From NCBI GenBank assembly GCA_032718475.1, contig JAUCBJ010002263.1:28565-92564 (forward strand): a stretch of 64,000 bases of DNA, read 5' to 3'. Each line of letters begins with the position of its first letter. The first letter of the stretch is position 1. Under the pieces are notes generated by a model. The model worked only from the letters and a program-made list of their open reading frames with translations, ran no database searches and had not been told where the DNA came from. The position numbers and the translations under genes are program-made. This DNA comes from Nemertoderma westbladi. Taxonomy: Eukaryota; Animalia; Xenacoelomorpha. Of this stretch, positions 1,335 through 52,206 are shown piece by piece.

Positions 1335-1370
1335 CGGTAGGCTCGCAAGCCTTCCTTTCTTCTCGCTTTC

Positions 1371-2873
1371 CTATTCCTTGGCTGATCGGGCTCGTCCACA
1401 TCCTCTAGTGCGACTGGGTGGTGGTCGAGATCGAACTGGACTCGGACTTCGGTGTCGAGTTATTGGTGGTTCCAAAACGCTAGGAAAGGGGACGACGGGA
1501 GTCTCACACATCCGTCGTGCGCTCAGTCCTCTAAATCCTCGTCCGATTCCAACTGTCGGCTTAACATCGGATCGAGTTTCTACAACGCTGGGAGGAAGTC
1601 GAAAGGGTAGGACCATTCCGTCCGTTGACACCTCGCTCTCTGACGTCGTTTGAATCCTAATGGGTTCCGGCAAAGCGTATCCTGTCCCTCCGCGTGGTTC
1701 TCTAGCGAGGGAAACCGTGCCCCGAGTCATCCGGATTTGCGACTTCGATGTCGTCCTCTCGGCGACATTTACTACTTTCTTTATCTCTTGTCCGGCCTTT
1801 TGGGCTCTGAGTATACGAAGTTGCGGATCATCCTGTGGGTGACGTGTCTTTTCAGCTAACGGCGTGGCCTTGAAGCCAGTCTCACGCAAAACGTCGGTCT
1901 CGTCTAGAATGCACGAGGTTACGCGTTTGTGATAAAATGCGCTCCTGTATGCCCAAGCTATCGAATGCCAAGCTCCTCGATTCCGCTGTTCAACTCGCAA
2001 TTTGTCGAATTCCCCGGCGGTAATCTTGTTCACCACAGTTTGAAAGTTCCAAGTATTCTTGTTGTCGGGGTGTACCTGTAGAAAGTAGTCCCGCACAACT
2101 TTAAATCCGCTATCCAGTGGCAATATATCCAGCACCTCCAGAAGTTCGTCGTACTGAGGCATAGCCGACACGTATCCTTCCTTCGACATTATGAGAGGGT
2201 TTACGGCCCAAAATCCCAAGTGGGCTCTCATAGGAAAACGGCGTCGCTGCGTTGATACATGCTCGTCTGCTAGATTCTCCCAATGGTCGAATAGCTGTCG
2301 AACGATTTTAACTGACATATGCTCATAGGGAACGTCCCTATGTTGACATTCGGACGCCCTATGGCCTTTAATATTACAATATGTGCACTGCGCCACGAAA
2401 CGCCAGCAAGTGTAGAAAGTGTGCGAACGCTGATCCCCGCACCAGTTGCATACCAAGTCCGGTAGAGATATGTGTTTCGCTCCGCATTTCTTTGCGTGGT
2501 GGCCAGTTGCCCCGCATCTGCCACAAATAGTGTTGGCAGGGTACCAAACTCGCTCATAGATAAGATCTCCGATGGGGCGAGCGCTACCGTCTACGTGATA
2601 ATTCTCATCATCCGGGTCAGTCGGTATGTTCGTCTCTGTGGGTTGTACACAAACCATGACATCGCTTTTCTCCAACTCGCGTATCTCAGTTCGCGTCTTC
2701 CTCGGAAGATTCTCCTCTATTTCGATGAGTTGCCGCAACGGTTCGTCTATTAGCGCCAACTCGGTCAGATCCACATCGTCGTGATGGGCGGTAGGCTCGC
2801 GAGCCTTCCAGGATCCTTCCGGGCGTTCGAATTCCGCGTGGCGTTCCCCGTCGTAGGGTACTAACGTTAACAT
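1371..2873 (-). CDS. Accessory protein, C-terminal part: three CCHC zinc knuckles plus RG/RS-rich tail
   Basis: CGRCGATGHHAKKC, CNWCGDQRSHTFYTC, CTYCNIKGHRASEC; tail GIGRGFRG...RSPSPVRSR...GRARS. Clear homolog at 36150-37586. In frame with 2991-4784 across one TGA. Confidence 0.8.
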   Translation of the reverse strand: MLTLVPYDGERHAEFERPEGSWKAREPTAHHDDVDLTELALIDEPLRQLIEIEENLPRKTRTEIRELEKSDVMVCVQPTETNIPTDPDDENYHVDGSARPIGDLIYERVWYPANTICGRCGATGHHAKKCGAKHISLPDLVCNWCGDQRSHTFYTCWRFVAQCTYCNIKGHRASECQHRDVPYEHMSVKIVRQLFDHWENLADEHVSTQRRRFPMRAHLGFWAVNPLIMSKEGYVSAMPQYDELLEVLDILPLDSGFKVVRDYFLQVHPDNKNTWNFQTVVNKITAGEFDKLRVEQRNRGAWHSIAWAYRSAFYHKRVTSCILDETDVLRETGFKATPLAEKTRHPQDDPQLRILRAQKAGQEIKKVVNVAERTTSKSQIRMTRGTVSLAREPRGGTGYALPEPIRIQTTSESEVSTDGMVLPFRLPPSVVETRSDVKPTVGIGRGFRGLSARRMCETPVVPFPSVLEPPITRHRSPSPVRSRPPPSRTRGCGRARSAKE

Positions 2874-2990
2874 CGACGGTCTGTCGACTAGGCTTCCCGC
2901 GTGAGTGAGATAGACGTCCCTGAAAACGCAAAGTCCCGCTCGCGTGAAAACTTCGCAGTGCGCATCGGTGTTATAAAAGGGTTGGAGAAA

Positions 2991-4784
2991 TCATCGGAAT
3001 ACATCCGTATGCATCCTTCCTCCGTCGTAAAAGGTATGTCCTTCACCGAGACATAACGGATGTCGCTTCAGAGTCCTAGACACAACATCGGCGATGAAGC
3101 AGACGTTGACCGAAGATTCTATCGCCAAGTAATATTGTAAGATTATTCGCGGAGGTGAAGTAATCGCCCAGTACACGCAACCTCGCCACTTTAGCTGTGA
3201 CTCGAACTCGTTTACGTCGGGAGTGTCTCCCTCTCCGTATACGTCCGTGTATTTGCTCCTCTTACTCTCCTTATAATCCCAACTGAACATTAGATATGAG
3301 ATATAACCCGTCCCAGTTTTTAGCGTGTTATACTCCCTAAAGTATCCTTGCTCGATAGCCCAAAGCAACAATGGTCTAGTATCCACGTATGGCGTAGGCA
3401 ATCGGTCCTCTTCCGTGGGCATCCCTGCAAAGTCGCTAATAAGGTCATCCTGTACACTGGATCCGATCTTGACGATGCTTTTGTCTAACACAACGTCTCG
3501 CATGGCCTTTGGCAACATCCTAGCTTCTATGCTACAAGCCAGGTCCATGGATTTAACTATCCGTTTTATCATCGCGTGTCTTTGCGTCGTTCCTTCCGGC
3601 ATAGGCATCTTTCTATCGCTTCTTTGTCGGCTGAAGACATGTAACACGCCATCTGGTGCTCTAATCTGTATAGTCTTTGAAGTGAGGCTTTGCTGGTGGC
3701 TTCCTCCTTCATTATCGTAAAACATGTAACCATTCTCCTTCAGAGATCGGCTAGTCACGTCCCAATCGTCGAGTAAATCGTCGGTAGGGTTCCAAATTCT
3801 CCCAATCGACTTTTCATCATCGAAACTAATAGGTTTTCTGGTCCAATTGGTCGCGATGTCGGTGTCGGTCTCGAATGTTCCAACTCCGATCCATAATCGA
3901 ATCGTTCTCGTCAGATATCCTCGCAAGATACAAGGTGCGATATCCGTCCCTGCGCGATCCACTTCCTTAAAATCCGTAATATGTGGAGGCACATTGCGTA
4001 CGATTTTCTGAACTATTGTTCTACGCAACTCGGCTGACTCTAACACATCACCATAGGTAACCGATGGGAGGAAATCCAGGTTCGAAATGATCTCCGGGTG
4101 TTCAACTATAGGGATCTCGTAAGTTGTCTCCTTCCGGGTCGGTATACTAATAGGAAAACTAGTTGGTCTCGCAACCGGTACTATCGTTCCAGCAGAATGG
4201 GGTTGAGGTTCTCGCGTCATCTCGACATGAGGTATCTGTAGTCTCTGCGACAAACGCTGAGCAAAGGTGATACTATCGAAGAGCTCGGGTGTCATCTCCT
4301 TAGGTTCGGTTTGATCGTGGGATATCCAATAGAATGGTAGGCTCGCGAGCCTTCCGCCGAACTCCTCGATCTCGCCTTTCTCGTACGCCTTGTACGCCCT
4401 GTAGAGGCTCAAAGCTTCCCGTTTCTCTTGCGTCGACTTATTAGATTCGTCCACTACCATGCTGTAGACGTCTGGTTCGACTAATTTAGGTTCGTTAATA
4501 TGCTTTCGTCCTTCTGGGCTCCTCCCGGAGGCGCACCCACGAGGCGGACGTGTTTCCACCACCCCTGGGGCCAGTCTGACTGATGTTATTATCAGACCGG
4601 GCCGGAGGGTGGCCCGATGCTTCCCGGGTTCTGTTTTCGGTCCCCTGATCACACCGGCACAGCTCGTCGAACGTGTAGCCAGATGGATGGCTACTGTCAA
4701 CTTACTGTGGCCTGACTGTACATTGAGCCAACTCAAAGTATAACAAAGAGTCAACCGGCAGGTGGACCAGTCGATAGCGATCAA
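2991..4784 (-). CDS. Accessory protein, N-terminal part: DEDD/DnaQ-like 3'-5' exonuclease (WRN/EXD/Mut-7-like fold)
   Basis: FYDNEG (ExoI DxE), TIQIRAPDGVLHVF, LPKAMRDVVLDKSIVKIGSSVQDD (ExoII), YVDTRPL, LQYYLAIE (ExoIII-like). True start uncertain (ATG at 4460 or spliced). Confidence 0.6.
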   Translation of the reverse strand: MIAIDWSTCRLTLCYTLSWLNVQSGHSKLTVAIHLATRSTSCAGVIRGPKTEPGKHRATLRPGLIITSVRLAPGVVETRPPRGCASGRSPEGRKHINEPKLVEPDVYSMVVDESNKSTQEKREALSLYRAYKAYEKGEIEEFGGRLASLPFYWISHDQTEPKEMTPELFDSITFAQRLSQRLQIPHVEMTREPQPHSAGTIVPVARPTSFPISIPTRKETTYEIPIVEHPEIISNLDFLPSVTYGDVLESAELRRTIVQKIVRNVPPHITDFKEVDRAGTDIAPCILRGYLTRTIRLWIGVGTFETDTDIATNWTRKPISFDDEKSIGRIWNPTDDLLDDWDVTSRSLKENGYMFYDNEGGSHQQSLTSKTIQIRAPDGVLHVFSRQRSDRKMPMPEGTTQRHAMIKRIVKSMDLACSIEARMLPKAMRDVVLDKSIVKIGSSVQDDLISDFAGMPTEEDRLPTPYVDTRPLLLWAIEQGYFREYNTLKTGTGYISYLMFSWDYKESKRSKYTDVYGEGDTPDVNEFESQLKWRGCVYWAITSPPRIILQYYLAIESSVNVCFIADVVSRTLKRHPLCLGEGHTFYDGGRMHTDVFR

Positions 4785-5671
4785 GCACCAAGGTCACCCC
4801 TGGGCCTAACCGACAGTCTTGTCCCAAGCGGGCTTGCGCTACCCAACATTGGAATTTTGACACGTTTTCACCTGCCTCGCCGGCAGTATTGAGGGGAAAT
4901 AAGTTCCGCAAACAATACTGACTAGCTCGAAAGCTAGGAACAAGTAACCACTTACCAGTCACTGTACACGTGTACTCAACAGATGTTCACAAATCAAGTA
5001 CACAAAAGGTAAACACAAAATCGAACACATACCATGCACACACAGAGACAAAATCGGTAAAGACAAAATCGAGGTCAAAGTTAGAGGGGACAAAATTGTA
5101 TCGACTGAAAGCCAAAAAAAAAGTCGAGAGTACTTTATTTTACCGTCAGGGTAAAATAACTTGTGTGTACAAAGCATGCTGGGGTGCAGTAGAGATATGG
5201 TCCTACTAATACCAGCGGCGTCTGGACCAACTGGCAAGGGTTCCCACACTCACTCGCACTGGCCATACATACAATCACGTGTACTCACGTACCCACAGCA
5301 ACAGAAAGCTCAAAGACCCAAACAAATTCCAAAGACCAATCAGCTGAACATGGAGACAATAACATATAGTATCAAAAAAACGGAACAGCTGATGGCCAAA
5401 GGAACCCATCCAAGCCCCAAGCAAACTGCCACCGATTGCCCACATACAAAACATAGTTCACGCCACATGAGCCACAAATCACGCCATGCCACCACCCCTA
5501 CTGTGTACAGGACTGGCAGTACAGCAACAGGCCGACTAGACGGTACCACGGCACCATGTCGATTCATGGTTCGCTAGACACGAGGGCCTTAAGTATCTCC
5601 CTTGCACTTACGCGGTACTTTAACGTGCCCCCAGACCCTCACGAGTCCGCCGCCGCCTGTTGATCGCACCC

Positions 5672-6313
5672 CTATAGGGACCTCACCTCTTTAGGTACGA
5701 TCTCACCCGCATTCGGTCCACTCATTTTAAACGAATGATACGGATTTGTCAAAGGGTATCCGCCTTCTTGGTAACGTAGACTTTGGTGGTATGAGCATCG
5801 CGCTAATATCGGCTCGGGGTTCTCCGAGTTCAACCGCATAGGAATCGCGTTGTCTTGCTCACGCATACACGCTCCACATTTATAAAACAGTTTGTATATG
5901 GAGAACGCGTCCTTGGTCTCTGGATCCGCTCCTCGAGCGCGTCTATAAAGATGCATTCCTTCAAATTCGTCTCTGGCTGCAGGTAAGGGTTCATTTACCG
6001 TCAAGTATTGCAGCATATGATATAATCGGCGTATTTCGGTGTCTGGATCCTCGCAAATGTCGCTAGCGTCGCATAACGCGTCGTAAGGATATAACGCATT
6101 GAACTCCGCACGTAATTCCTCCGTTCTTTTGTTATATGCGTCCAATCGTTGTCGTGTAACATTCGGGTCCGCCTTGGATTTAGCGAGCTTGGCTGTACTC
6201 CTAGCCATACTCTCCACTCCAAACACACTAAAGTTTTTAGCTCCATAACGATTAAATGGCGCCTGGTGCTCTTGTTCCTTGACGTAACTCTTTATAAATC
6301 TTCTCCGCCATCA
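5672..6313 (-). CDS. Accessory ORF-A of element 1, unknown function (possible Zn-binding CGAC...CSYH); frameshift near 6290
   Basis: APFNRYGAKNFSVFGVESMARSTAKLA aligns with APFERFGAKDYTIFGIKELSESTAKLA at 35983-36219 in element 2. Confidence 0.6.
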
Positions 6314-6485
6314 TATACGCATATATAACCCCACAATATTTATTACTATTAATGAATCAATCACAATTACAAACAATATTAACAAACAAACAATTGCACA
6401 GATACCCATCACCAAGATACAATGAAACTTTTAAAATTTATTTGTAAGGAGCCCAAAATTTTGAGAATTTTTAGTTTAAAACGCT

Positions 6486-9400
6486 CTAGACGCTAGGTAG
6501 CCCAGCACCGTCATCCAGCCCTAGGCCGCTCCTCCACTTCACCCTGGATCCCCGAAGGCAGTGGGTGGCGCCGCGGATGACCGCCAGCTGGATGCGGGTT
6601 CGAACCCAGCCCATGGTGACGCTGTAAGGACGCCCCCATGACCGATGCAGCCAGTCAGCCACCACGCGAAGCAGGTGATTTGCCTGAGGAGCGAGTACTC
6701 CGCAGCAGGACGCAACGAAAGGCGAAAAGTCACCTCTTCGAGCAGTAACTGCGTCCGCATAGAGCCGCCTCTTCTCGTCTTCGGCAGACACTAGTACTGA
6801 CATCGGGGCGCGACCCACGTAAGACTCGGCGTCAAGGTTTACAACCCGGATGTCTATCAACGCCTGAGTCTGTGGGTTTAGTGCGCCCCGGATGCCCACG
6901 TCACACCGAAGACCAGCTGCTCCCTCCTCCCCCTGCTGCTCCCGGACTATCGGCTCACGCACCACGTTACGCGGTCCAAATGCGAGCGCGGCGAGATCCC
7001 CGAAAACATCCCGCAGTTCGTTATGGCGTTGGATGACAAGGCCGCCTTTTTTACAATTTAAACCGTGGTTTAAATCAAAGGCGGCCCCACACCCATCGCA
7101 CCTGCTCGGAACTGCCGCCAAGGGGCGACCATAGCGGATCGCCAGGGCGTCCCGGAACTCCTGTGGCGACAAGTCTAGGTGGTGGTCGGCTAGCGGAACA
7201 GCAGAAATCCACCCACTCGAGCGGAAATCGGCGGCACACCGCACTGTCCGGCTGCGGCAGTCCGTTAACTCCTCTAGCGTGGATTCGAGGTCGACTTTCT
7301 CCCGCAACATCTGCTGTTCCCGACCCTCTTTCCGCGCTCGCTTCAGACAGTCCAGATGCTCCGAGTGTATGTATGAGCTCTTACCGAGTATGGCTGCCGC
7401 GAGGGAAGCGGTCCCCTTCTGTGAAACCGAGAAGGACTGGGCAGCCTCGGACACCGGATTTCGCAGCCCGAGCCCAGCGTTGCGGGGGGACAGACCGAAC
7501 AGTTTTCTCTCTTGGGAGGATACCTCACTTCCTAAGATTGCCGGAAGAAACCGTTCGGTTATCGCCTCCTCCAGCACCTCGTATTCCTCACTACAGTCCG
7601 GGGTTACCCGTTGTAGGTAGGCCCACTCCCGCTGGAGGGAGCAGGCCATAGCCGCAAATGCGGCTTGGGGCTAGGCCTCTGCCATCTCAGCGCAAGACGA
7701 TCAACAGAGTCGACCCACCCTGCTACCTTAGCCTGGACATGGCCCCTCCTCTCTACAGCGCCGCCTATGTACCCGTTGAGGAATCGATGACCTGACACAA
7801 TATTTATCGATTGGCCCGCAAAGACTCTATGAGCCTCCTCGACAAACTCTGGGGCTACTACGAGGTAGCATTTCTTTGGCTCCGGGAAGTATCCGAGAGT
7901 TGGTCCGAAACGCTGTAGCTCGATGAACCATTCGAGAACCAGCTCCAGTCTACCTCCCGCCCCTGAGTCATCCTCATACCAGTTCTGAACCAGTTGAGTA
8001 TCCGGTGGTTTACGCAGGAGGTGAATGAAGGGGAGAATCCCTGAAGAATACTCAAGCATAGCGAGAGGATCTCCCTGCGTGGTGCCCTCCTCACTGAATA
8101 TCACCTCCTCGGTCCCGCGTATTGTTAGTATGCCATGCCCCCGGTAACTATTGAACAGAAACAGGGAGCATCGAGGCCACAGCCGACGCGCATTCCACAG
8201 CGCGGCTGTCCGGTTTAGAGAGTTAAACGCGTTTGACGCGTCTATGAGGAGAAACCCCCAGCCATCATCACTCCGTTGATCGAACAGATCTGCCATCGTG
8301 TGGACAGCGGCCTCCACCCCTGCTGATGTGCCGGCGGAGAGCTGTTCAGCGCCGCAGGTTGCCGTAATATCATCCCCCGTGGCTTCAGCCATTGAGCGAC
8401 CGAGAATGCGACGCAAGCATTCCCCGATCCCGATCGGCCGAACTCCTGGGCATTTATCCAGGGCAATCAACCGACACGACATAAGGGCACGTGCGGACTC
8501 CCACGGTATAACTGTGTTGGCGAAGGACCGGGCGATATCGGCGATGGCGTCATGAAGGCGTTCGCTGTGGGCGCTGTATCTGAGTAAATAGTCGCCCCAG
8601 CGAGTTGAGTCTGAGCCCGCCGGGCCGGCTCCCCCATGTAGTCGGCGAGCAGCAGACTCGACGTGGGAGGCCGTTATGTCAACATCGACACGGATTGGGA
8701 GTTCTTCATCTGGTTGAAGGAGAGATTCTGGGGGGGGGGGTTCGGAGGCGGGTGGATGCTTGGCTCTCAGGATATCGAGGACTTTGACATTTCCTCCTCC
8801 CATGTCGACTTCCTGGTTAGGGTCTAATAAACCGCCGCTCTCCCGACCGGTCACCCAGCGTACAGCGCTGCGTACCTTCCCTTCTAACATCAGACGAGTA
8901 AAAACTCGGATCGTGTGATCCTTGTCCTCGCCAGCCGGCTTGCTTCTCGCTCGCCGCCCTGAACTGAACTTGAGGGAGCAGCGCTCCGCCTCCTGTAGTA
9001 AGGCCTCCATATTCCCGGCCTTCCACATCTGTAATCTGCGGCTCAGAAGGCGCCGGATGTCCGCGGCCTTTGCAACTTTTGGGTCGCGGTGGAGGAGCAA
9101 TGCGTCCAAAAGTATGATCCTATCCGAACGCGCGTTGGCTATGTTGTGGCGCAGCCCAGACACGAAGGCCGTCGCTTCCTCCGCCAGCATCGCAACACGT
9201 CACGGCCCACTGCACCCCCTGGTAGTCTGTATTTGGAACCGCAGAGCTGAGTCGCCCGTCTCCACTGATGGAGCAGGCAGTCCGGCACGGCCCCCTTCCC
9301 TACCAGTGGGGCCCCATATGCCCTCGTCATTAGGTCATGAGGGTCGGTGTTCCTTCGGGGCTCCCCACCTGTGCTCCACTGGTTGCTGAACACAGTTCCG

Positions 9401-10604
9401 TCCGTAGCAACTTGCGGCTGTCTCACGGTTTGCAAACCAACAGGCGGACCCGTGGGTACAGACAAGCCAACAGACGGACATGTGGGGACAGACAATCTGA
9501 CAGGCGGACCCGTGGGGACAGACAAACCGACAGGCGGACCCGTGGGGACAGACAAACCGACCGCCGGACCCATGGGGACAGACAAACCAGCAGGCAGACC
9601 CGCGGGGACAGACAAACCGACAGGCGGGCCCGTGGGGACAGACAAACCGGCAGGAGGAGCTGAGGGAACAGACAAATCGACAGGCGGACCCATGGGGACA
9701 GACAACCCGCCAGGCGGACCAGTGGGGACAGGCAAACCGACAGGCGTACCCGTGGCGACAGACAGACCGACAGGTGGACCCGTGGGGACAGACGATCCAA
9801 CAGGCGGACCGGGTGGGACAGACCCGAACCCGTGGGGACAGACTGGCCGACAGGCGAACCCGTGGCAACAGACAAACCGACAGGCGGACCCGTGGGGATA
9901 GACAATGCGACGGGCGGACCCGTGGGGACAGACGAACCGACAGGTGAACCCGTGGGGACAGACAAGCCGACAGGCAGACCCGAGGGGACAGACAAACCGA
10001 CCGCCGGACCCGTGGGGACAGACAAAACAACAGGCGGACATGTGGGGAGGGACAAGCCGACAGACGGACCCGTGGGGACAGACAAACCGACCAGCGGACC
10101 CGTGGGAACAGACAAGCCGACAGGCGGACCCGTGGGGAGAGACAAACCGACAGGCGGACCCGTGGGGACATACAAACCGACGGGCGGACCGGTGGGGGTG
10201 GACAGACCGACGGGCGGACCCGTGGGGACAGACAAACCGACCACCGGGACCGACATACTGACACGGTATGGGGAACGGCGTGTCACCAACGTGTCGCTCA
10301 GCGAGTGAAAAGAACAATCGCTGTCGGACCGGTCCGACAATGTATCGTCATGGGAGTCGTCCCCCCTCCCCAACTCAGAAGGAAGCGGCTGGGAAAAGGA
10401 CGTAATCGCTGACGCCGGCCCGTCTCGTTGTCCATCAATGATCGGGGTGGGTTGAGGGGTTGTCGGCGAACCGACTCCGCCGTTCAGGCACCGTCTCCGC
10501 TTGCCGGGAATGCAGTCCCAGCATTCTCGGCCTGCCCTTACGCAGGGGCACCACGCACCGCGCTTGCAAGTGCCGTTAATACCGCATCCGCAGCATGAGG
10601 GCAT
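6486..10604 (-). pseudogene. Single ORF of the CRE-like element (Cys-rich N-terminus, decapeptide repeats, RT, CCHC, PD-(D/E)xK endonuclease); frameshifts near 9830, 9200 and 7670
   Basis: RLIALDKCPGVRPIGIGECLRR, DASNAFNSLNR, EGTTQGDPLAM, WYEDD, GYFPEPKK; CDGC..NHGLNC..RHNELRD..RCD..DIRV. Confidence 0.85.
9433..10252. repeat. 30-bp coding minisatellite (~27 units), encodes TGPPVGLSVP
   Basis: Unit GACAAACCGACAGGCGGACCCGTGGGGACA repeated with variants. Confidence 0.95.
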
Positions 10605-11499
10605 CCCTGTGCTGGTCGATCGCTAACAGTGTCCGCAAGCCACAAACGTTCTGGGTTGTCAGCAATGTCAAACGCCGTAATGGTGGCCTCCTCAGTTTGG
10701 CGCCAGGCAGTCTGGCTGTCGGCACTATCAAAGGTGCTATACTGACCTACAGCATATACGCAGCAGATACGCATATATATGGTTACATATCGTTACGTTT
10801 CTACTAGATGAAGCACAAAATAGAGGTTAGATGTGAGGTGACTTAGAGTTTGTCGGCTTTGGCTCAACTTTGCTCTAAACCCCAACCCATTTGCCTAATG
10901 ACTTCGGGTTCGCGTGATTTCGCACTGGCTCCTAATCCAAAAAAATGTGCCGATAAAAATCGAATTCCGGGTAAACTAGCCGCGAGTCTAAAATACTCAC
11001 CTTTTAATTTCCCAAACTACATTCCCAAAAGAAAAATAATGCAGTCGAGAGTTAATTCGGTCTAAATAATAGTAGACACGACTACGTAGAACAAGGCCGG
11101 TTTTCTTTTCCAAAAAAAAGTTTATCGGTAGGCTCGCCAGCCTTCCATCCGCTCTTGTCCTCCCCAATTTTAATTTTATCTAGCTGTATTCTAGAATTCG
11201 CATTCACTGGAGAATCGTTTTTCTTAAATTTAAATCCAACTAAATGGATTTGTCTAATAAATTTTGAAAAATTGTCTCACTTGTGGGTTCCAAGTGGAAT
11301 TCCATTCCTACTGTACACACAATCCCGCTCCTATGTGATATATAAGGGTACTACCCTCCATGTTCACATATAAAGACAATGGAATTCTACCGCTGTCTCT
11401 ATCTACAGTGAAGAGGATTACAAATGCACATACAGTAATACAAATACTAAATTACTAAAATACGGTAGGTCTATGTGGCGGCCAACAAAGGTCCCACAT

Positions 11500-14400
11500 C
11501 TATTTACTAATATTGGGTGGAGATTTGTAGTCTCCTGTCTCGTTTCTAGTCTCCTCAAGGAGCACGAGACGTTGTACAGGTCTGTCTACAGTACGTCCGT
11601 CGATAGTCCTTACAGTAACTGTCCTCACTACACCAGATGTAGGGTGCGTGGTCAAAATGACTCCAGTCAGCCAAAACCGTCTTTTCAGATTGGCTTCAGC
11701 CAATAAAACATGGTCACCACGTCTTAAACATCGGGTATTGAGATACCAAGAGGTTCTGGTCGAAATAGAGGGCAAATAATATTTCTGCCATATTTCCCAG
11801 AATTTATTTGCAAGCAATTGAGTGGTTTTCCAAGCTTTGTTGCCGTATCCGTCGCTATCAACGGGTACCGAAAAGGGCAACAATGTCGTCGGCGCCTGCA
11901 TAAGCAGGTGCGCTGGTGTCAAGGCAAACAGTGCGTCGTTATTGTCTGGGATCAAAGCGATCGGTCTAGTGTTCAAAATCGCTTCGATTTCTATTAACAA
12001 CGTCGTCAGTTGGTCGTCTGTCAGTATGTGTTGCGTCGGTACGACTTTAGCCATAGCTGTCTTAATTGAGCCAATCAGTCTTTCCCAAACGCCGCCTCTC
12101 CACGGACTGTCTGGAGTGTTGAAATACCAAACAATACGGTGAGGATGTAGTTCCTCGGAAATCTGGTTTGGTCCAACTTTCTCAAAGCTCTGGTTATCTC
12201 GTTCCGTGCACCCACAAAGTTTGTCCCTTGGTCGCAGTAAATGGATTTGACCAATCCACGTCTAGCGATAAATCGCCGTAAGGCTAGAATAAAGGCATTG
12301 GTGGTCCAATCTGTCACTCGCTCTATATGGACAGCTCTGCTGGCCATGCAAGTGAAGATCAATCCCCAACGTTTTACCTGTACCATTCCGCGTTTCGCGA
12401 TTATGGGTCCAAAACAGTCTATCCCTGTCTCAGTGAAAGGGGGTCTAAATGCCTGTAATCTTGCTAGTGGTAGTTCACTCATTTCTTGGTGTCCTATCCT
12501 CGCGTGCACCTTCTTACAAATCATACAGTTCCGTGTTACCGAACTCAGTGCCTTACTAGGTCTAATCAGTACAAACCTCGAGCGTAAGTGTGATAGACAG
12601 TGGTGTCTACCCACGTGTTTGAGTTGTACATGTGCGTCCAGTATCATAGCGCGCTGTAATTCATGGTGTTGCGGTATGATGATAGGATACCTAAAGTCTA
12701 GTGCAAAGTCGATGTTTTGGAGTCTGGACTTGTGACAAAGTAAGCCCCGGTAAATAATCGGACTCCAACTCAAAATCGGTGAAGACTTAATCTGTTTACC
12801 TTGGTTGATCGCTGTGAACTCTCGTGCGAAATATCGCAATTGATAATGTCTAATGATATCAACTTCACAATGGCCAACTTCCTTTAAGGTAAGTCTTCTA
12901 GGAAAGTCGCGTTTGCCTCTGGCATATTGTCTCAAACGTTTGAGCCATGCTAACTTGCGGCACGCGTCAGTCCATGATCTAGTTAGGTTTACTATCCGGT
13001 CAACGTAAGTGTTAGTGACGTCATCAGGTAAGGTATAGTCGTATTGTGGATACTTGTCTGGACTTGGTAGGCCCACGGGCCTTCTGGTAGGTTTGTCTGA
13101 GTCCCCAAGTACGTCAATCTTTACGGTCTTACCTTTACCGTCCGCACCTAATGTGTCGACTGGCAGTAACGGTTTCAACTCTACAGTGTCAGTGTGTTCC
13201 TGTGAGCCTGTAAGCTTCCTAACCTTAGTCACACGTTTACCTGTAGGTGGTAAGTCAAGTACCTTCTTTGAGCGGAGTGTGATCGCTGTGGCCACACCTT
13301 TGTCGTCCAAAGAAGTCAAATTCGGTAAGTCTCTAAATTTCCGCTCCAATGGGTCTTCTAGTGGAGTGTCTAGTAGACAGTCTGGTGAAGCGTCCGGTGA
13401 ACAGTCTGGTGAGACGTCTGGTGAGGCATAGCGCGGAACTTCCAGCGAAATGTCTTGTCGTCGGTCCCAAGGTCTGTCTGGCGTAACTTCTAGCAGAAAG
13501 TCTGGTCCAAAGTCTGGTGGACAGTCTGTCGAGATGTCTGGTGGAAAGTCTGGTGAGACGTCTGGTAGACATTCTGTCGAGAGTTCCATCAAACAGTCTG
13601 GCGAACAATCCGGAGAACAATCTGGTGTCACTTCTGGTGAATAATCTGGCGAGTAATCTGGTGAACAATCCGGCGAAACGTCTGGTGAAATCTCCCGCGG
13701 AACATCCGGCGAAAGATTCGTACAAGCGTCTGGTCGAGTGTCTGGTGAGACGTCTGGCATAATGTCAGGTCTGGCGTCCAGGTCATCAGATTTCGTCCGT
13801 CCTTGTTTCCTCTTGACCTTGGCGTTGGCTTTCGCTTTGGACTTGACAACCTTGTCGATTTTTATCTCGGCACCCTCTGGTATGGTGTTGGTTGTCGCGT
13901 CGAATAACGGTGGCCATTCGTCTGATGGTCGCTGTAGGAACTCGGGTCCTCTAAACCAAAAGGATTTATTGTCCGGTTTACAAAAGTCAAGCGGTTGCAT
14001 CCCCCGTGACGCGATGTCAGCTGGGTTCAGCTTCCCTGGACAGTGACGCCAATCTTGTTTGAGCGACCGGTCTAATATTTCAGCCCGTCTGTTGGCTACG
14101 AAAGTCTTGAACTCAAATGCTTCGTTGTTTATGTACCAAAGTACCAACGTCGCATCCGTCCAATATGTGACCTTTAAGTTAGCCTCCAGCTCGCGTTGAA
14201 CTAGACTGACAATATCGGTGGATATCGTCCCGGCTCGCAGCTCCCCACAAGGTACAGTCATATACTTCAATGGCATTGTTCTAGCTCTTGAAGTAACGAG
14301 AGACACTTCGTAGCTGTCCGATGTCACTTGTCGTCTAAGGTACAAAGTAACCCCCAATCCATCCTTGCTAGCGTCACTAAAGCTGTGAAGCTCTAAATCG

Positions 14401-17400
14401 GCTGGAAAGGTGGTTTGCAAAGGAAAGTATACCCTCGGTATGGTATAGTCTTGTAGGAAAGTCAGTTGGGCTTCCCAGTCCCTCCATCGCTCAGCTAACT
14501 TTTCTGGGATGGGATCGTCCCATTCCAATCCGGCTTGCCAAATGCTGCGGAGTATGATCCTAGCATGTAGGATCACTGGACTAATGAAACACAATGGGTC
14601 ATACAATCGACTCATGGTCGATAAGCAAGTCCTCTTAGTGAGAGGTCTAGTCTGGTCGTTGGACCTTACACGTACCCTAAAATTGTCGGTGTTAGGGTCC
14701 CAAATAAGTCCTAATACTTTGGTCGTCGGCAGAGGTTCTAGGTCTAAGTCTAAGTCACCTCCGCTGCGATCCGTCGGGTCAAATGAGTTCACCAGTTTGG
14801 GTTCGTTGGAAGCGAACTTCGTCAGGTGGAATCCGCCCTCAGCGAGACAATCTTGGAGTTGGTGTGCTACGGTTGTAACGCGCTCCAAGGTGTCACAACT
14901 CTTGAGGCCGTCATCCACGTAGAAATCTCGTTCCACTGTCCGAACTACTTCTGGGTCAAATTGGTCTCGTCTGTCCAATGCGGTCTGCTTTAAGGCGTAC
15001 ATGGTGCAGTTGGGGCTGTCCCTGGCTCCGAAGACTCTTACCTGCATTTGGTAAGTTTCTGGCGGAAGTTCTAAATTTCCGTCCGGATACCAAAGAAACC
15101 TCAAGCTGTCCCTGTCCCGCTCCAAAGCCTTAACCTGGTGAAACATGGCCTCTACGTCACAGGTGAAAGCCACTTTGCGTTGTCTAAAACGCATTAGGAC
15201 TCCCATGAGGTAATTGTTCATATTCGGCCCGTCCATCAGTTCGCTGTTCATAGACATCCCTTGGTAAAGCGCGGCGCAGTCGTTGACTACACGCACCTTG
15301 CCAGGTTTGTCCGGGTGTCGAACAAAATGATGTGGCAGGTAATATGTCTGGTCTGTGGTTACCTCGGGATTTAACATCCTAATGGCGTATCCCCTTTGGA
15401 GATACGTCTGAAGTTGTGCATTGTATTGCATATGGGCCGTCTCGTCTCGCAACAATCGCTGCCTTATTGATTTGAGTCGCCTCAAAGCAAGCGGGTAATT
15501 GTTAACGAGTTTAGGTTGTCCATTGCGCCACAACATACCAACCTCATAGTGGCCATTCGCGGTCTGGCGAATGGTATCTCTCATAATATTTAATGACCGT
15601 TTTTCCTGTTCTGAAATAGCGGTCTCGTAACTACCGGGTTCTGCTGAGTCCTGTTCCAACCATTGAATGGTCCGTTCAGTCAGCAGTCGGTCTAGCGCTG
15701 CTTGCACTGCGCCATGGTCCTCGTGCACGTCTTCGTCCGCTGCGGTGGCTAGTGTCAATGCGTCTGGTAGGCTCGCAAGCCTTCCGGTGTCACTCGTCGG
15801 CGTCGAATCGTCGTGCGGCGGTTTGACAACTTCTTGATCTATCGGTAGGCTTGCAAGCCTTCCAAGATCAACGACCGGTGTCGAAGCCTGGTGGGTGGGG
15901 TCAATGACCTTTGGATTTTTCGGTAGGCTCGCAAGCCTTCCAAAATCCTCGTTCATCGAGTCATCCACAGCAACAACCCTTTGGTCTTCGGTAGTCAATA
16001 CAACCTGGTTTACTGCAAGTAGTTGTAAGTCAGAGGTCCATGTGGTCGTGTCCAGATCAGTTACGTCAGTATCGGTGGCGTCTGCGTTAGCGACACAAGT
16101 CTGTCGTAGTGCCGTCCGTACAATTGGACCACGGGAGTGTGAAGGAGAGTTATCTATCGTAGTAGTCAATAAACTACATGTACTCAAAACATCGTCCTCC
16201 TGGTCACTTACCTCTAGTGAACGTATTGGTGCTCTAGTATACCAACCTATGGGAGTTCTACATGCGTAGGGGTTGCCCGCTGTAATAACAGATGGGCGTG
16301 TCTCCCATACCTGATGTAAGTTAAACTGGTCTGTCCCAATTAACATCGCAATGGAACGATAATTAACAGGACATTCTGGTATTCCAAGGTGTCGGAAATA
16401 CTTACGATCTTCCGGTGATTGCTCTGGCACAGGGCCGAGCAAGTTACTAAAGTCCTTCGTAGCTGCAAAGGTCAAATTTCTTACCGGAAGTAACGAGCGC
16501 TCCTCCTTGCTGTGTTCCGCTTTGGAAAGAAGAGTGTCTAAGGTTAGTTTTACTCTTGTCACAGGAATCGCTCGCTTACCATGCATGCTGCTTACAGTGT
16601 ACTGAGCAGTCTTACCTTTACTCATGTCCGTAACCACGTCGGCTACTTGTTCGTCGACATAACTGTGTGATGACGTAGAGTCTAAGATAGCGTATATACG
16701 CTTGCTCCCTCGGGTTCCGGTAATCTTTATAGGAATCACGCTAAACCCTTTCAATTGGTTCTGTGTGAGGAGCGTTACCGATGGTTGTTCCTCACCTGCA
16801 TGCACGTAGAAAGTGACGTCTTCCTCCTCGTCCTCGTCCGATCATCCTGACTGATCCATACAGTCCGTGTAAAATGTACGGATCTCGCGCGGCGCACGCT
16901 CTTTATATAATGTGTCGCATCTAGCCGCTTTATCTGGATGCTCTCGTCGAAAGCGTCTGGTCGGAGTATGACTAGTTGTGTGAAGCAACGCGTCATGGTT
17001 ACGTCCACATAGAGGACATGTATCGTCGCTCGGGCAATCCTTCCGGACGTGTCCTGGTTTCGTACATCTCCAGCAGGAATCTAACGATCGAATTTGGAGT
17101 CTCCTTTCTTCGATCCCTAACTCCTTAAAAGCGCGACATCCACGAAGTTTATGTCCGCTTTGGTTTCTGCCGTTCCGCTCGCAGTATGAGCATCCCACAA
17201 AGTCCGCCGGCAACTGTTGTCGAGGCTGCGTGGTGCCGATAGGCGTCAGAACTTTAGAAGTCTCAGTAGGGGTGGCGTAGGTAACGGCTTTCGCGTTCGT
17301 CGGAAATGGTTTAGTCCGATTCGGCGCAGAAATAGCTATCCCTTCTGCCGCGATATGGTGATCAGTATAATTCGATCGGGTCTCGATCACGGCCTCCCGC

Positions 17401-20348
17401 GAAATCAGTTGATAGACGTTGGTAAGTTTTAATAACCCTCCGGCCTCTTCACGCTGGTACTCGATGCGTTGCCATTCTCGTCGGAGTCGATGATGAAGTC
17501 GACCGATTATCCTGATGAGAACCGTCGGTGCGTTAGCATACTCGAGTTGTCCAATGGACCGTAAAGTCCCTATAGCATTCTTGATTTCGTCCGCGAGTCG
17601 TAGAAGATCGATCGGTTTCGAAATGCTGCCTCCTCTACAGAGGTCTTCGATAATGGATTTAGCCATGGCGACATTACCTCCGTAAATCGAATATAAACGG
17701 TCGTACGCTAACTCAAAGGCATCAGGAACACCAATAAAGGTTTCCGCTAATCGTTTCGGCTCACCAGACAGGACTAGGAGCAAGTAATTAAACTTCTCCG
17801 TCGAGGTGAAAGCACACTTAGCGATCTGGGACTCTACGTAGTCTACCATTGTGCGCCAGTGTTTCGCGTTGCCAGAGAACTTTGGCGGTTGCTGTGCCGG
17901 TAATCCGTGTCTAGCCGCGAATTTCGCAATCTCGCTAACCAAATCCAACTGTCCGCGTCCCTGTTCGGTGGCGTCGTCCAGTCGCTCCCTTCCGCGTGTT
18001 GTTCGTCGGTAGGAATTATTAACGGGATCTTCTTCTCGATGTGTCGGAGTCTGTCTAGTCTCCTGTTCTCGCCTTGGTAGTCAATGTTGTCTAGGTTGTT
18101 CTAACTCCATGCTGGTTCGTGATCGATCCGACGGTTGCGCTTCGAGTCGATCTTCGAGTTGAGCTAGTCGGTCCGTCATCTCGGTGAACTGTTTGGCGCT
18201 GATCGTTTCCGGTGGTTTCAACGTGGGTTTCTGCAAAGGTGTTTCTCGTGGAGGATTCTCGATGTAGGGGTTTGTCGATCGTTCCTCCCGTTTGTAATCC
18301 GCTGTCTCTGCCGCTCCAGTACGGAATATTTCCCGTTCCGTTGACTCCGAGTCACTGGATGAGTCGCTTTCGTCCGGATAAGGTGGCTGGCGGTTTCGCG
18401 TTCAGCGTATTACTTTTGGTCTCGTTCGCTGAGGTCTAGAGTCTACGGTTCTCCGTCGTTCGGTAGGCTCGCAAGCCTTCCACGAAGTCGTAGGTCTCGT
18501 TATACGTTGTTCGATCCCGTGGGTACTACCCACATCCATCCTCCTCCGTAGTTCGGTAGGCTCGCAAGCCTTCCACAAAGTCGTAGGTTGCGTCGAACAT
18601 TGTGTCAAAGGTCGAGTGAAATAGTCGGGTTTCGTAGTCGGTCTATAAATAACTGGGTTCGCACAGCACATCACAGGTTTAACTTGTAATGGTTTACTCA
18701 CCTGTTTAATTGTCATAAACGCAGGTTCCTCTCTTCCTACAAGTAGACTACGACTTACTGTAGGTGGACTAGTTATGTTACCTGCTAAAATTGGCGATGA
18801 AGTTGCCCTAGGTTGCAGTATTTCCGTCACAACAAACCTGTTGCCTTGCGTCGAACGCACAGGCGTTATTTCCATAGGTTTCGTAACAAAGACCGGTTTT
18901 ATCGAAGTCGTGGGTTTGAGCATAGGAATAACTTGGGGAAAACGTTTACAGTAATCCTCGACGAACTCCTCTCCTCGATCTATCGCTTCCACACTTCCTT
19001 CCTCGATTTGCTTCTGAATTCCGTGATATCGAGCTTCCATGCGATCCAGGGCAGACAAGTCGTGTCCAGCTCGCGATCTTATAGATCTATCTCTCGCGTC
19101 GAGTTCAAGGTCCGCTTGCGCGTTCGCTGCCTCGCGCGAACTACGATTCAGCTCGAACTGTAGTTGCATCTCCCTTTCGCATCGATCCGCTACTTGTTGT
19201 TGTGCCGCTAACTCCGCTTCCTGTATAGCTAAACGAGTGTTTATTTGTCGCGCCTCCAACTTGGCGCGAGCATCGGATGCTGCTTTCTTCCGTGCTAATT
19301 CGTCGGCTGCCGCCGCCGCGGCTGCTTCTTGCGCTAAGTCTTCCTCCAGTCTTCTCATCTCTGAGGATTCTAATTCGGCTTGCGCCTTGAGTTGCGCAAT
19401 TCTCGCCTCATCCTCTCTATATTGTTTCTCTCCCTCGATGGCGATCTGTGCCATCCTCTGTTGCGTTTCTTCCTCGACGACTTGTTGTCGGCGTGCAACC
19501 TCCTGTTGTTGTCGAGTAATTACAGACGCTGTTCTACTAACGTCGCCAACGTCGCCAACATCTCTCCGTACACTAACAAACGATCTATCCAGTGGTGGAA
19601 TTTGGTAGGCTCGCGAGCCTTCCGTAGTAAGAACTTCCGTCGTCCCTCGCGGTTCGACTTCCGGTTCTTCGATTGGTACGCCGCATCTACGAAGAAAATT
19701 GGTGAGCGTCTCTAACCTCCCGTCCAGGCAGTAGAGTTCTTCTTCCTCTTCGGGTTGTAACACCGCGTCCGAAACTGACTCACCTAGCAGTTGGTCGAAC
19801 TGCTCCTGTTGAGCCAATCTTATCACCGACTTAAACTGAATAAGGCTTTCTCTCGCACTTACCAACTTGTCTATTATCTTTACCTGAGTAAAGTTATCGC
19901 CACGCAACTCTGCAAGTTCGTGTAAACCTTTAAGTTTATCTACGGAGGCATGTACCCTACCTTCTATCCTTACCTGTAAGGTGTAGAACTCGTATCTCGA
20001 CATCGGGGCGGTTAACTTGCGTAAAACGCGAAAACCTTCTCCGAGGTTCCGGGTAATCTGGGCCATGTGTCCTCCTATACTCCTAATAACGTTCTCCTGG
20101 CTTCCAGTCGAACTTACCATGTCTGGTTCCCGTGATCTGGTCTGCGGGATGGTAAGGAAATCTTCAATTCTGCCGTCGCCAAGCGTTGCAGCTTCCGGTA
20201 TTTCCGTTCGGGGTACCGGCGACGCATGCGGTGTGACATCGGTGGAATCTCGGGTTCTCCTTCTCGGTTCGTCTACTGTCGATCTGTCCTGGTCGCACGA
20301 GTCATAGTCGGTAGGTGGGTATCGAGTCGAATGGGGTGTGTCACTCAT
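11500..20348 (-). pseudogene. BEL/Pao gag-pol polyprotein of element 1 (3 in-frame stops, frameshift in integrase near 12160)
   Basis: Coiled-coil N-terminus; Gag PKFSG..EKFNYL; CCHC knuckles; protease AILDSTSSHSY; RT FYVDD; Pao RNase H HSFSDAS; IN H..H..CMIC, GIDCFGP, YCDQGTNF, E.ILNTRP. ORF pieces 18402-20348, 16842-17948 and 12075-16805 share one frame. Confidence 0.93.
13370..13770. repeat. 12-bp coding repeat (xSPD tetrapeptide) in RNase H-integrase linker
   Basis: TCTGGTGARACG-like units; protein SPDVSPDCSPDYSPDY. Confidence 0.85.
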
Positions 20349-21772
20349 GTCTTATTATATACGTCAAGTACGGGTAATAAAATGTCAAAGTATCTGAATG
20401 TTGAAATGTTAAACTTACCTTGGTATATATAGTATATATATACCCTAACCGGTACAAATAAATCAACAAAGTCAGAATGTCGAAATGTCGAAATTTCCAA
20501 ATGTCAAACTTACCTTGATATATATATATATCTTATATATACCCTAACCGGTACAAATAAAACTAACAAAGTATATAATAAAATAAGTAATAATCTAGCC
20601 TACCGGCTAAATTTGTACGAATAAATGAGATAACGGTATACGTTACCAAAATGTAGATCAACAAGTTCAAATAATAGGCAAAACAGCAACGTCTAACGGG
20701 AAAATAAGTACCAACAACACTACTAATAGACAGTGAAACCCACAAATTTTGAGTACTACTGTGCTTTCTTAAGTTTGAACGACACGAGTCGTAAAACTTA
20801 CGCTCCTTTGATCTTCCAGTCGTGCAAATTCCCAAATACAAACCGGACGTGGGTCGTTCCGTTTTTCGGCGGCGCGGACGAATTTTTTGTCTCCCAACAT
20901 TGCGAAAAGCGGTCTAATCCTCGAAGCGGTCCAGAAATGAGTCCTTGAGTCCTGAAAAGTCGAAGGTGAGAGTTTTACTTCTACGCTACGAAAATTCTTC
21001 CTAGGTACTGATACAACTTGGTCTTTAAACCCTATGTACCTTTTCAAGTACCGAAAAGTAACACCGCACACACACGGCGTAAAACAAAGTGCTACAAACT
21101 AACTATTAGCTAGTCAAATATTAAATGCAAAAGTTCTAGCTACCCTAAAAGCCTACTGAAGCAGGGGACATTCTACAAATTACTAAATTTACTAACCTTA
21201 AATTTTTAAATATCTCCTACTTTCAATAGCTAACAGTATGTGAGAGACCTCACGGTTGGGATCAATACTATACGCTAATTTGTATAATATATACCTCACT
21301 GTTGTGTCCTCTACGGTAGGGACTACCCTACAGCCTACAAATCTACCAATACGAAGCTATAGAATATCTCTATCCATAAAGTCCAGTAGCATACCGCTTA
21401 CCAGATCCTAGTAACGATGTATCTTACTATGAGACTCTAGTAATGAAACGGGCTCGTACAGTATCTGACAACAAATCCCAGTCCAGGATATCTAAACAAA
21501 CAGATACAATACACAAACTACTACTGGCGAGGAGCAGAGCCTGGTGTCTATTCTATGTACGTGGGCGGGTCTAATGCCTACGTACTAGACAAAAGGATAC
21601 CTGTCCTCTAACCGGTATGGCAGATGTACAGTTACAGTAACAGACCAAACTCACGGGAAAACAATCCCCGCGCAGCGAATCCTAACTATCGCTGACAGTC
21701 CTAAATACAGTAACTTGCCGCGGTGTGATTTATATGGTTTATATACGAGCTAGGTGGGTTACGGCCCTAGCG

Positions 21773-21946: not shown

Positions 21947-23124
21947 TGCGCAGAAAACAACAGTTTAATAACGAAAATGAAATGCTCCCTCTTGCCGTAA
22001 CTAAATATCTGATCCTAATTTACAAATACAGATAATTTCTGCCTAAAGTAATCTAAAGTGCGCTATAACTAGTAGAAACTCTAAGGGTAGATATGTTTTA
22101 GGGCGTGTGTGTGTGGGTGTGTTACAAATAAAACAATTTTGGTGTATCCTTTCACTAGGTTTTAGTAATTCTCTGACCGAAATAATACCGTGCGCTAGCT
22201 ACTAAAATAAACTAGTCGCGTTTTGTTGAACTTTATACTAACAAATGACGTCAAAGCTCTCTCCTTCCTATCCACAACTCAAATGGGCAACCACGGTGTT
22301 AATAACTACACCCGTGATCGGCACAAATACCAGATTCTGGTTGTAAGATAAGAAATAGGGATTAATTGCTACCGTACGTTAGCTGATCTGGTATACGAAT
22401 TTGATTCTAGAACTTTGTTGCCGCGGTAGTTAGCAGCAATACCTATCAGTACGTGGCAAGGCGCGGTAGGATATTAATAAAAACCTCCCTAGGCCAAGCG
22501 GTGTGCCGGTAGCAGAAATGCTCCTTGCCTGATCAAATAACCAACTTCAGGCAGGGGGGGGGGGGGGGTACTAATGTATGCTCTACAAAGCGAACCGGTA
22601 CCAAACGGTCAGTACTGCGAATCACTAAATTATGGAAACATATGCTGTCTGTACCTAATATGTACTCGCGTACTGACGGACGGCAATAATTCGCTTCTAC
22701 CTACTTACCTGTGAGGTATACAGGTAACCCAGGGGTTCGCAGGACTGGCAAAGGGGGAGGGGGGGGTTTTCTGCCTAAAATGTAGTTATTTGATCCTAAA
22801 TTTGCGGCGTCCCAGGACGACGTCATGCTTACCCTGATCTATAGGTCTTACGGCGGGCAAGGGCTTCAAACAAAGTCTTACCTTCCTCATAAAGCGGGCG
22901 CTGCATGGCAAGTGGAGCATTTCGAAGGGCGAAGGGGTGTGCGGTCCAAGTTAAAGTGGGCGCTAGCGTGTTGTGGACATCTTTTCCCTGCGTTGCTGAC
23001 GGCCTAACGGTCTAGGCGGTCATCTTCCCGATGTTTGGCTGTCCCAAAGTTGGACCAAAGAAAAACATGTTCAGGAGTTTACAAATATATTTACAGTTTA
23101 CGAAGTTAATTGTGATTGTACAAG

Positions 23125-23292
23125 TAGTGATAACCGAAGGCAAACCAGCCCTTTATATACTAAATCTGGGACATAGAATTCGCTAGAACCTCCTAGAATA
23201 TTCGATGGCCTCACATTGGAGCAATAAGATATTCCATGCCTTATGATTGGCCTAACTCATCCTTCGATACGTTGTACGCACCTCATTGGCTT
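23125..23292 (-). promoter_or_regulatory. Pol II promoter in element 1 LTR: CCAAT boxes, heat-shock element, TATA
   Basis: Minus-strand TATATAAA at 23152-23159; nGAAn/nTTCn array at 23175-23204; three ATTGG upstream; TCACTACTT initiator-like shared with element 2. Confidence 0.6.
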
Positions 23293-23334
23293 ACCAATTT
23301 GTACCAAATGAAAATAAATGGCCCCAAAATACAA

Positions 23335-23410
23335 ATTTCCCGACCAAGATTCGAACTCGTAACCTATGTAATGCAACCAACGCCTTAACCATCTGACCAC
23401 TACGCCACGA
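23335..23410 (-). ncRNA. tRNA-derived Pol III A/B-box unit in U3 of element 1 5' LTR
   Basis: Copy of 440-515. Confidence 0.6.
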
Positions 23411-23544
23411 GAGTAACTAGGGGTTTTATGTATACAAATATGAATAGGCATATTACATTACTGTAACTTAATCAACATGCGTCGGATTTTCGAAAGTTTT
23501 TACGTTATACTACAAATGCTATTCTATAGTGAAATAATTCATCA

Positions 23545-23624
23545 CGCGAGATTAATTATTTTCTCGCGAGTTTAATCATTTATCTCGCGAGATTAATTAT
23601 TTTCGCGCGAGTTTAATCATTTAT
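23545..23624. repeat. 80-bp remnant (4 units) of the TCTCGCGAG satellite between the two BEL elements
   Basis: Same 20/21-bp units as 40280-46106. Confidence 0.95.
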
Positions 23625-23751
23625 TATAGAATCATATTCCCTAAATGCCGTGGATTTTCAAAATTTTATTTTATTCGAATTAACTTTGTTAAAGATTACA
23701 TTAAGTCCTCATTTGTATTTGCTATATCTATTGTACGATGTTTAGTCAAGT

Positions 23752-23838
23752 GGTTCAGTAGCTCAGTCGGTAGAGCGTTGGAAATTATATATGTAGTAGG
23801 TATTGAGTTCGAATCCTTGTAGGTGCGAATTATTTTTT
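23752..23838 (+). ncRNA. tRNA-derived Pol III unit in U3 of element 2 5' LTR
   Basis: TAGCTCAGTCGGTAGAGCG (A box, perfect GCTC/GAGC D stem) at 23759; GAGTTCGAATCC (B box) at 23805; T6 terminator at 23833-23838. Confidence 0.65.
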
Positions 23839-23904
23839 GTACAGAATTTCAACTCATTTAAATTGACCGCTACAAATTAAATTGCATTTGTCTGTACCTA
23901 GATT

Positions 23905-24085
23905 AACCAATGGGACTGTAGTTATTAGATTGTAACCAATGTCGTGCAAGTTATATATTAGCTGGACCAATAGCTATCTTTAAAAACCTGTTAGAACCTA
24001 TAGAACAATCGAGAATTTTCTCGATTGATTGCAGCACAAATTTGCTATATAAAGGTGCGATTTCGTTCATTAGTTCACTACTTCT
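23905..24085 (+). promoter_or_regulatory. Pol II promoter in element 2 LTR: three CCAAT, heat-shock element, TATA, initiator
   Basis: CCAAT x3; aGAAc aATCg aGAAt tTTCt at 24002-24021; TATATAAA at 24046-24053; TCACTACTT about 30 nt later. Confidence 0.65.
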
Positions 24086-35300: not shown

Positions 35301-35320
35301 CAACAAATGTTAGTAAATAA
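26330..35320 (+). pseudogene. BEL/Pao gag-pol polyprotein of element 2 (~2997 codons in one frame, 4 nonsense codons)
   Basis: Stops ending at 28870, 33583, 34387 and 35032 are all in frame. Motifs AILDSASSHS, FYVDD, HCFSDAS, H..H..CIIC, GIDCFGP, YSDQGTNF, GGVWERL. Confidence 0.95.
28222..28540 (+). repeat. 84-bp coding tandem repeat (4 copies) in gag, each carrying the 20-nt hairpin motif
   Basis: QFTSQSTTSRKTCEPTEQRR.. x4; motif starts at 28251, 28335, 28419, 28503. Confidence 0.95.
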
Positions 35321-38374: not shown

Positions 38375-38391
38375 CTGTTTTCATGGAGCGG
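38375..38391 (+). other. Plus-strand primer site (PPT position) of element 2
   Basis: CTGTTTTCATGGAGCGG abuts the 3' LTR; identical in element 1. Confidence 0.7.
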
Positions 38392-52167: not shown

Positions 52168-52206
52168 TTTGCCGATTAACTAGCTAAAAATATTGCGACA
52201 AATCCG

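Follow-up and report, generated by a model that had tools for sequence, protein, structure and literature searches.

The two minus-strand open reading frames (ORFs) at 2991-4793 (600 aa) and 1371-2990 (539 aa) of the 64,000-nt Nemertoderma westbladi window analyzed here make up the bulk of a single long accessory gene, ORF3, of a Bel/Pao-type long terminal repeat (LTR) retrotransposon, element A. The gene is real, selected and multidomain, and this copy of it is dead. The ORF pair sits between pol, which ends at 11500, and the polypurine tract and 3' LTR, the position of env. An earlier account of this DNA, made from its letters alone (the original prediction), had noted that the two ORFs share one frame, that a single TGA (2991-2993) separates them and that the 39 codons downstream of it are open as far as the next Met; our re-reading of the sequence agreed. 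It had also supposed that the ancestral product was a fusion of >1,000 aa and proposed examining 2991-2993 in other copies. For this comparison, we mapped contigs of four public DNA runs (X1-X4; at most three samples, from three studies) to 1340-6480. Rare variants are lost from such contigs, and the window itself may derive from one of the runs, but the three studies are in agreement. At position 2993, a letter other than the window's was present in all four runs, in 7, 10, 14 and 2 contigs that made up 100, 98, 100 and 100% of the depth (4734.6/4734.6, 7898.8/8076, 15585.7/15585.7 and 174.3/174.3 in X1 to X4). The in-frame stop of this copy is therefore absent from the copies seen in all four runs, indicating that the pair is one fused gene encoding >1,000 aa, as had been supposed.

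We considered whether the pair might instead represent two separate genes, or whether the TGA at 2991-2993 might be passed by programmed read-through. The Met 39 codons past the stop would suit this reading, as would a related element in the window, element B, in which only the C-terminal part is a long ORF. However, B is a deletion derivative, and the stop was not found in the copies seen in any run. Furthermore, a single stop in 1,040 codons does not stand out from the background, because gag-pol of both elements decays at such a rate (three in-frame stops and one frameshift in ~3,000 codons in A; four stops in ~3,000 codons in B). We regard the two-gene or read-through reading as largely refuted and very improbable.

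The gene extends farther than had been described. The upstream ORF opens with ~95 codons (4793-4501) that are not ORF3 sequence and belong to a non-coding insertion of 1,196 nt (4501-5696) that splits ORF3 in this copy. Seven joints in the contigs bypass ~4500-5700. All five for which the intervening letters are known give a net loss of 1,196 nt; the sixth omits exactly 4501-5696, its intervening letters not being known, and the net length of the seventh was not computable. By frame arithmetic, removal of 1,196 nt lets the minus-strand ORF at 6310-5697 (~205 codons) read straight into the remainder of ORF3, and over 44 aa this N-terminal part is 45% identical to the start of B's ORF3. The gene start lies ~1.8 kb farther upstream, probably near 6310-6325, and the uninterrupted ORF3 has ~1,247 codons by arithmetic. 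The shared frame stands; the N-terminal ~200 codons and the insertion had been overlooked. A middle region without known relatives (3849-4500) precedes a likely exonuclease-fold domain (3066-3848). The C-terminal part (1371-2990), which is 60% identical to B, comprises an acidic linker, three zinc knuckles, a conserved domain of ~145 aa and a basic low-complexity tail. The ORF3 remnant of B (35983-37586, plus strand) has lost the nuclease region, and its 5' start runs into the knuckle part in a different frame: B 36019-36150 matches A 6286-6155, and B 36168-36398 matches A 2813-2583.

ORF3 is under purifying selection. The original prediction had called for a dN/dS comparison with 36150-37586, which lies in B. 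We made it as pN/pS and not as dN/dS because synonymous sites between A and B are saturated. The ratio was 0.20 in the knuckle core (280 codons) and 0.50 in the tail, compared to 0.29 for pol and 0.27 for the core of gag. The copies in the contigs gave a second measure. Among the 40 listed of 823 differences between the window and the copies, a list that omits some high-share sites (for example 4446), 34 are coding and 22 of these 34 fall at third codon positions (p 1.8e-4). Since B lacks the nuclease region, selection there rests on few sites; the diverged contigs do cover it.

The domain at 3066-3848 very probably adopts a DEDDy exonuclease fold of the WRN/EXD2/Mut-7 branch, judging from sequence comparison, and the original prediction had proposed the same relationship. 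When 3779-3099 was queried against the ESM Atlas, named clusters only, all 30 matches fell in PF01612, led by a Werner-syndrome-like exonuclease (0.92). We also built a WRN-like profile from 48 bacterial proteins whose family relation to WRN and EXD2 was shown; an earlier nine-row profile had included a wrong ORF (locus L159), which the 48-row profile omits. On the 1,039-residue read-through, this profile scored 10.1 bits, above all 1,000 shuffles (257 scored; maximum 3.8), and hhalign aligned it over 97 columns (E 2e-4). An ordered six-block motif score had a z of 7.0 that none of 500 shuffles reached, and the Exo II block was significant against 1,000 shuffles. Across Exo I and Exo II, the motifs follow the order and spacing of the WRN-exo/EXD2/Mut-7-Nibbler/EXD1 branch of PF01612. 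Unlike members of that branch, ORF3 has several insertions and a non-canonical Exo III, is only 14-25% identical to the bacterial WRN-like proteins and goes undetected by Pfam.

Several results weigh against the assignment. The Atlas match had a recognition of 2228 (<2300) and 166 shared features (<170), just under the Atlas reliability marks, and a 371-aa Atlas query yielded only RNA-dependent RNA polymerase leads (0.81). The hhalign probability was 46%, and the profile and six-block signals stem mostly from the Exo II block. Sequence searches of ORF3 with Pfam, PHROGs, NCBIfam and the PDB gave no nuclease match. A single-sequence AlphaFold model failed, with a predicted local distance difference test (pLDDT) score of 33, and had no Foldseek match at E 0.001. 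A model guided by the WRN-like alignment reached pLDDT 58 and matched EXD2, EXD1, Nibbler and Trypanosoma brucei RNase D (TbRND) at low template-modeling (TM) scores of 0.27-0.39; Egalitarian also matched. Because this model was built with the WRN-like alignment, it is circular, and we count it only as compatible with the DnaQ fold. The lack of matches to curated profiles, together with a fold obtained only through that alignment, could mean that the domain is not DEDD and that the Exo II-like block is convergent. However, the independent language-model search and the shuffle-controlled profile concur, and the motif blocks occur in family order; we consider convergence improbable.

The catalytic residues were only partly those expected. 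The exonuclease motifs in the original prediction hold for Exo I and Exo II, whose carboxylates are present. In Exo I these are Asp259 (3716-3714), which is invariant in a 49-row alignment, and Glu261 (3710-3708), identified by its DxE pattern; a second DxE at residues 224-226 has a higher ungapped score and a poorer spacing fit. In Exo II, Asp349 (3446-3444) belongs to a Lys-x-Gly...Asp pattern that is invariant in the same alignment. The motifs do not hold for Exo III. In this copy, the region at 3188-3117 lacks the canonical YxxxD in either register, which counts against a working nuclease. The automatic alignment puts Trp435 and Val439 (WxxxV) at the positions of the family's Tyr and Asp, and an alternative register, found by eye, offers Tyr454 and Glu458 (YxxxE). 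ORF3 may nevertheless keep some catalytic activity despite its altered Exo III.

The Trp and Val of the best-scoring register raise the possibility that the DEDD fold has lost catalysis, as in EXD1/Maelstrom-type proteins, and that the product is an adaptor that, together with the knuckles and basic tail, would bind the RNA of the element and serve its export, transport or localization, replacing env for germ-line access. The Foldseek matches of the biased model include EXD1 and Egalitarian, and inactive RNA-binding DEDD derivatives are mentioned in the available text of PMC5408684. An RNA-export accessory protein of an LTR element also exists, CERV of Cer1, as described in the accessible part of PMC10309623. 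By contrast, three of four carboxylate positions are kept, and the alternative register supplies an acidic residue. Furthermore, some changes are private to the window copy, whose Exo III codons may therefore not mirror the family. Loss of catalysis is thus a possible reading, although we doubt it; if true, ORF3 would parallel EXD1/Egalitarian-type adaptors.

Past the nuclease domain, three CCHC zinc knuckles (2346-2525) follow the patterns CX2CX4HX4C, CX2CX5HX4C and CX2CX4HX4C, the second being one residue longer. These knuckles had been predicted and are conserved in B. Pfam zf-CCHC scored them below its cut-off (E 0.016). A region of ~145 aa just past them (1899-2340) is as conserved as the knuckles themselves and had no Pfam or PDB match. 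A His/Cys-rich stretch at 2928-3062, just past the nuclease domain, flanks the stop and by eye could be an extra metal site. The predicted absence of a transmembrane segment was also borne out: the maximum hydropathy over 19-residue windows is 1.48, within the nuclease domain, and there is no transmembrane-like segment. The missing membrane anchor supports the conclusion that ORF3 is probably not an env gene.

The RG/RS tail of the original prediction is present, but it is modest. The last 150 residues contain five RG and five RS/SR dipeptides. The RG/RS-rich portion (1371-1560) is short, with 12 Arg in the last 60 residues and two conserved basic islands, and the tail is otherwise 43% identical between A and B. 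The GRG motifs, one in A and two in B, lie in conserved islands and do not form an array. Proteins of the Vasa/Piwi type that bind Tudor domains carry repeated GRG with symmetric dimethyl-arginine. The germ-granule and piRNA antagonism suggested earlier leans on these one or two motifs, and we find it unlikely. In its fuller form, RG motifs would bring the protein into germ granules, where piRNAs or siRNAs would be trimmed or sequestered and silencing weakened. Membership in the same branch as Mut-7/Nibbler, retention of the RG islands in an otherwise diverged tail and dispensability of ORF3 in cis would all fit such a role. However, the GRG content is unlike the Vasa/Piwi array, and knuckles and basic tails are common to RNA-binding proteins in general. 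In addition, 2'-O-methylated piRNA ends resist Nibbler-type trimming. We therefore give counter-defence a low probability, and it seems equally doubtful that this Bel/Pao family swapped env for a knuckle-clamped Nibbler/Mut-7-like small-RNA trimmer that disarms piRNAs in germ granules. An ORF3 product acting on host small RNAs would, if real, be a direct transposon counter-defence.

We tentatively favor, at somewhat less than even confidence, a knuckle-assisted RNA 3'-end nuclease that works in trans on element RNA. The three knuckles would grip single-stranded RNA and pass its 3' end to the predicted exonuclease domain. The protein would be made independently of Gag-Pol, from a gene that pol and a conserved spacer precede; this non-coding spacer (10826-11416, minus strand; 72% identical to B 35350-35924) holds candidate expression signals. 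The protein would act on the RNA of the element's own ribonucleoprotein by 3'-end trimming or protection. RNA as the substrate is suggested by the knuckles, the basic tail and the analogy to TbRND, in which an Exo domain is combined with four CCHC fingers whose deletion cuts RNA binding and cleavage, according to the available part of PMC7797062. A point on the other side is the distance of ~180 residues between nuclease and knuckles, compared to a 28-aa linker in TbRND. A joint between 1501 and 5760 was present in three of the four runs (depths 1,259, 1,686 and 145) and marks internally deleted derivatives without most of ORF3. Such copies, and element B, fit action in trans.

These observations also bear on primer trimming, which the original prediction had offered as one function and which we disfavor because ORF3 is separate from Pol and is missing in internally deleted copies. 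More generally, an enzyme acting on the DNA side might trim primers or cDNA 3' ends, or proofread, during reverse transcription. WRN and EXD2 act on DNA, as this idea would have it. However, a 3'-5' exonuclease is unsuited to removing 5'-attached RNA primers, and ORF3 lies outside Pol with a spacer of ~700 nt between. Bel/Pao Pol also brings an RNase H and an integrase of its own (PMC8742986). Dada DNA transposons offer a precedent: for their DEDDy domain, a part in the processing of DNA ends has been proposed (PMC3706591, available text). On balance, we think a DNA-side enzyme hardly likely. Dada is like element A in being a mobile element with a captured DEDDy exonuclease, a likely one in A; in Dada, unlike ORF3, the domain lies inside the DDE transposase, with none of its four catalytic residues lost, as far as that text extends.

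The knuckle-assisted nuclease reading has an architectural analog in TbRND. In both, tandem CCHC knuckles, which in TbRND clamp RNA, come after a DEDD Exo domain, a likely one in ORF3; unlike ORF3, TbRND is a cellular protein of 390 aa that has four fingers and trims guide RNAs (PMC7797062, in its available portion). The two have no detectable sequence match, and we draw an analogy and not membership. Since the Exo-plus-knuckle layout has this biochemically solved analog, it provides a concrete, assayable hypothesis.

Third genes of this kind have been published, a precedent that the original prediction had overlooked. DEDDy ORF3s of unproven function occur in rotifer Juno/Vesta LTR (Ty3/gypsy) elements and in Athena retroelements (PMC5408684, PMC6431247 and PMC6338049, the available parts of each). 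As in rotifer Juno1/2, Vesta2/5 and Athena/Terminon, to the extent of those texts, the gene described here is non-env, follows pol, likely encodes an RNase D/Mut-7/WRN-like DEDDy domain and lacks a transmembrane segment. The catalytic set is non-standard in both cases, with DEED reported for the rotifer ORF3 in the available text of PMC5408684 and a non-canonical Exo III here. Unlike the rotifer genes, ORF3 resides in a Bel/Pao host; the rotifer lineages are not described as Bel/Pao, and "BEL" occurs zero times in the part of PMC5408684 available. It also differs, in a comparison by description only, in encoding a ~1,250-aa multidomain product that carries three CCHC knuckles as well as a basic tail. 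In the ORF3s examined by Rodriguez et al. 2017, the available text reports no clear departure from neutrality (PMC5408684). The present non-env third gene is a large multidomain case under clear purifying selection. Collectively, these comparisons suggest that ORF3 is a separate capture of a DEDDy domain in another LTR superfamily.

Within Bel/Pao itself, some elements carry an env-like gene between pol and the 3' LTR (PMC8742986). The layout of LTR, gag, pol, third gene, polypurine tract and LTR, as well as the Bel/Pao Gag and Pol domains, is that of the Belpaoviridae (Semotivirus). By contrast, the third gene here is not env-like, and B has an LTR of 1.9 kb versus 0.2-1.2 kb and a length of 16.7 kb versus 4.2-10 kb (PMC8742986). 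The word "exonuclease" is nowhere in the main text, as available, of a Bel/Pao survey (PMC3118150). In the literature outside subscription papers and Repbase, we found no Bel/Pao exonuclease and no ORF3 uniting DEDD and knuckles. Homologue searches with ORF3 retained none of 5,254, 3,280 and 52 candidates. Searches of viral contigs, metagenome contigs (with an A/B alignment as query) and plasmids recovered no relatives, the plasmid matches being chance. We rejected the single match in 1.84 billion representatives (P0002, E 2.4e-4), a three-repeat protein matching over 40 residues without motifs, and a metagenome locus (L221) whose match lies in the frame opposite a bacterial gene. In the databases searched, we thus found no sequence relative of ORF3 outside Nemertoderma westbladi.

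We return to the segment that splits ORF3 in this copy. We considered an intron, and a donor-like site is present at ~5683, but by eye we found no in-frame acceptor with a pyrimidine tract. Because the segment is missing from DNA contigs and no acceptor was seen, we treat 4501-5696 as an insertion and not an intron. Target-site duplications of 5-7 nt around it occur at chance level only, Rfam and tRNA searches gave no match, and indels are frequent inside it among copies. Joints in run X4 (5739-to-4502 and 5695-to-5739, one contig each) suggest that the segment is also 43 nt away in another ORF3 copy, before an identical three letters, and several contigs start exactly at 4502. The segment may be an unclassified non-autonomous element that is selective in its targets. 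A nested non-LTR retrotransposon (LINE) lies at the ORF3 start (6328-10766, minus strand), with a 13-bp target-site duplication (6315-6327 and 10767-10779), a weak RVT_1 match and loose contig ends at 6326. Its 5' part carries a 30-nt tandem array (9347-10356), and it may resemble CRE/restriction-endonuclease-type LINEs.

Elements A and B are related Bel/Pao LTR retrotransposons arranged head to head in the window, each with LTRs in direct orientation. Element A is on the minus strand. Its 3' LTR (1-649) begins TG, is truncated by the window edge and is 99.4% identical over 650 nt to the corresponding portion of the 5' LTR (22896-23545). A purine-rich 9-mer (650-658), identical to one before the 3' LTR of B, is the polypurine tract of A, comparable to the ~10-nt tract of Belpaoviridae. 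The minus-strand pol (11500-16841), which has one frameshift, matched Peptidase_A17 (E 4e-38), Integrase_H2C2 and DUF5641 (E 4e-19), and the minus-strand gag (16842-20351), which has three in-frame stops, matched DUF1759 (E 6.5e-10) and zf-CCHC. The domain order is that of Bel/Pao: DUF1759, RVT_1 (weak), Peptidase_A17, Integrase_H2C2 and DUF5641, with the integrase last. Element B spans 23625-40279 (16.7 kb), and its 1,892-nt LTRs are 99.3% identical and start TA, not TG.

The Gag N-terminal extension is very long (650-850 aa; 18402-20351 and 26315-28870) and contains coiled-coil-like and tandem repeat segments; a Pfam scan of the scanned part in A had no match. Approximately 80 nt of a 20/21-nt satellite separates A from B and resumes at 40280-46000, and both elements seem to have inserted in it. 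Finally, ORFs at 51175-62021 resemble Polinton/Maverick by eye, with a capsid-like protein, an integrase, a packaging ATPase and a protein-primed DNA polymerase.

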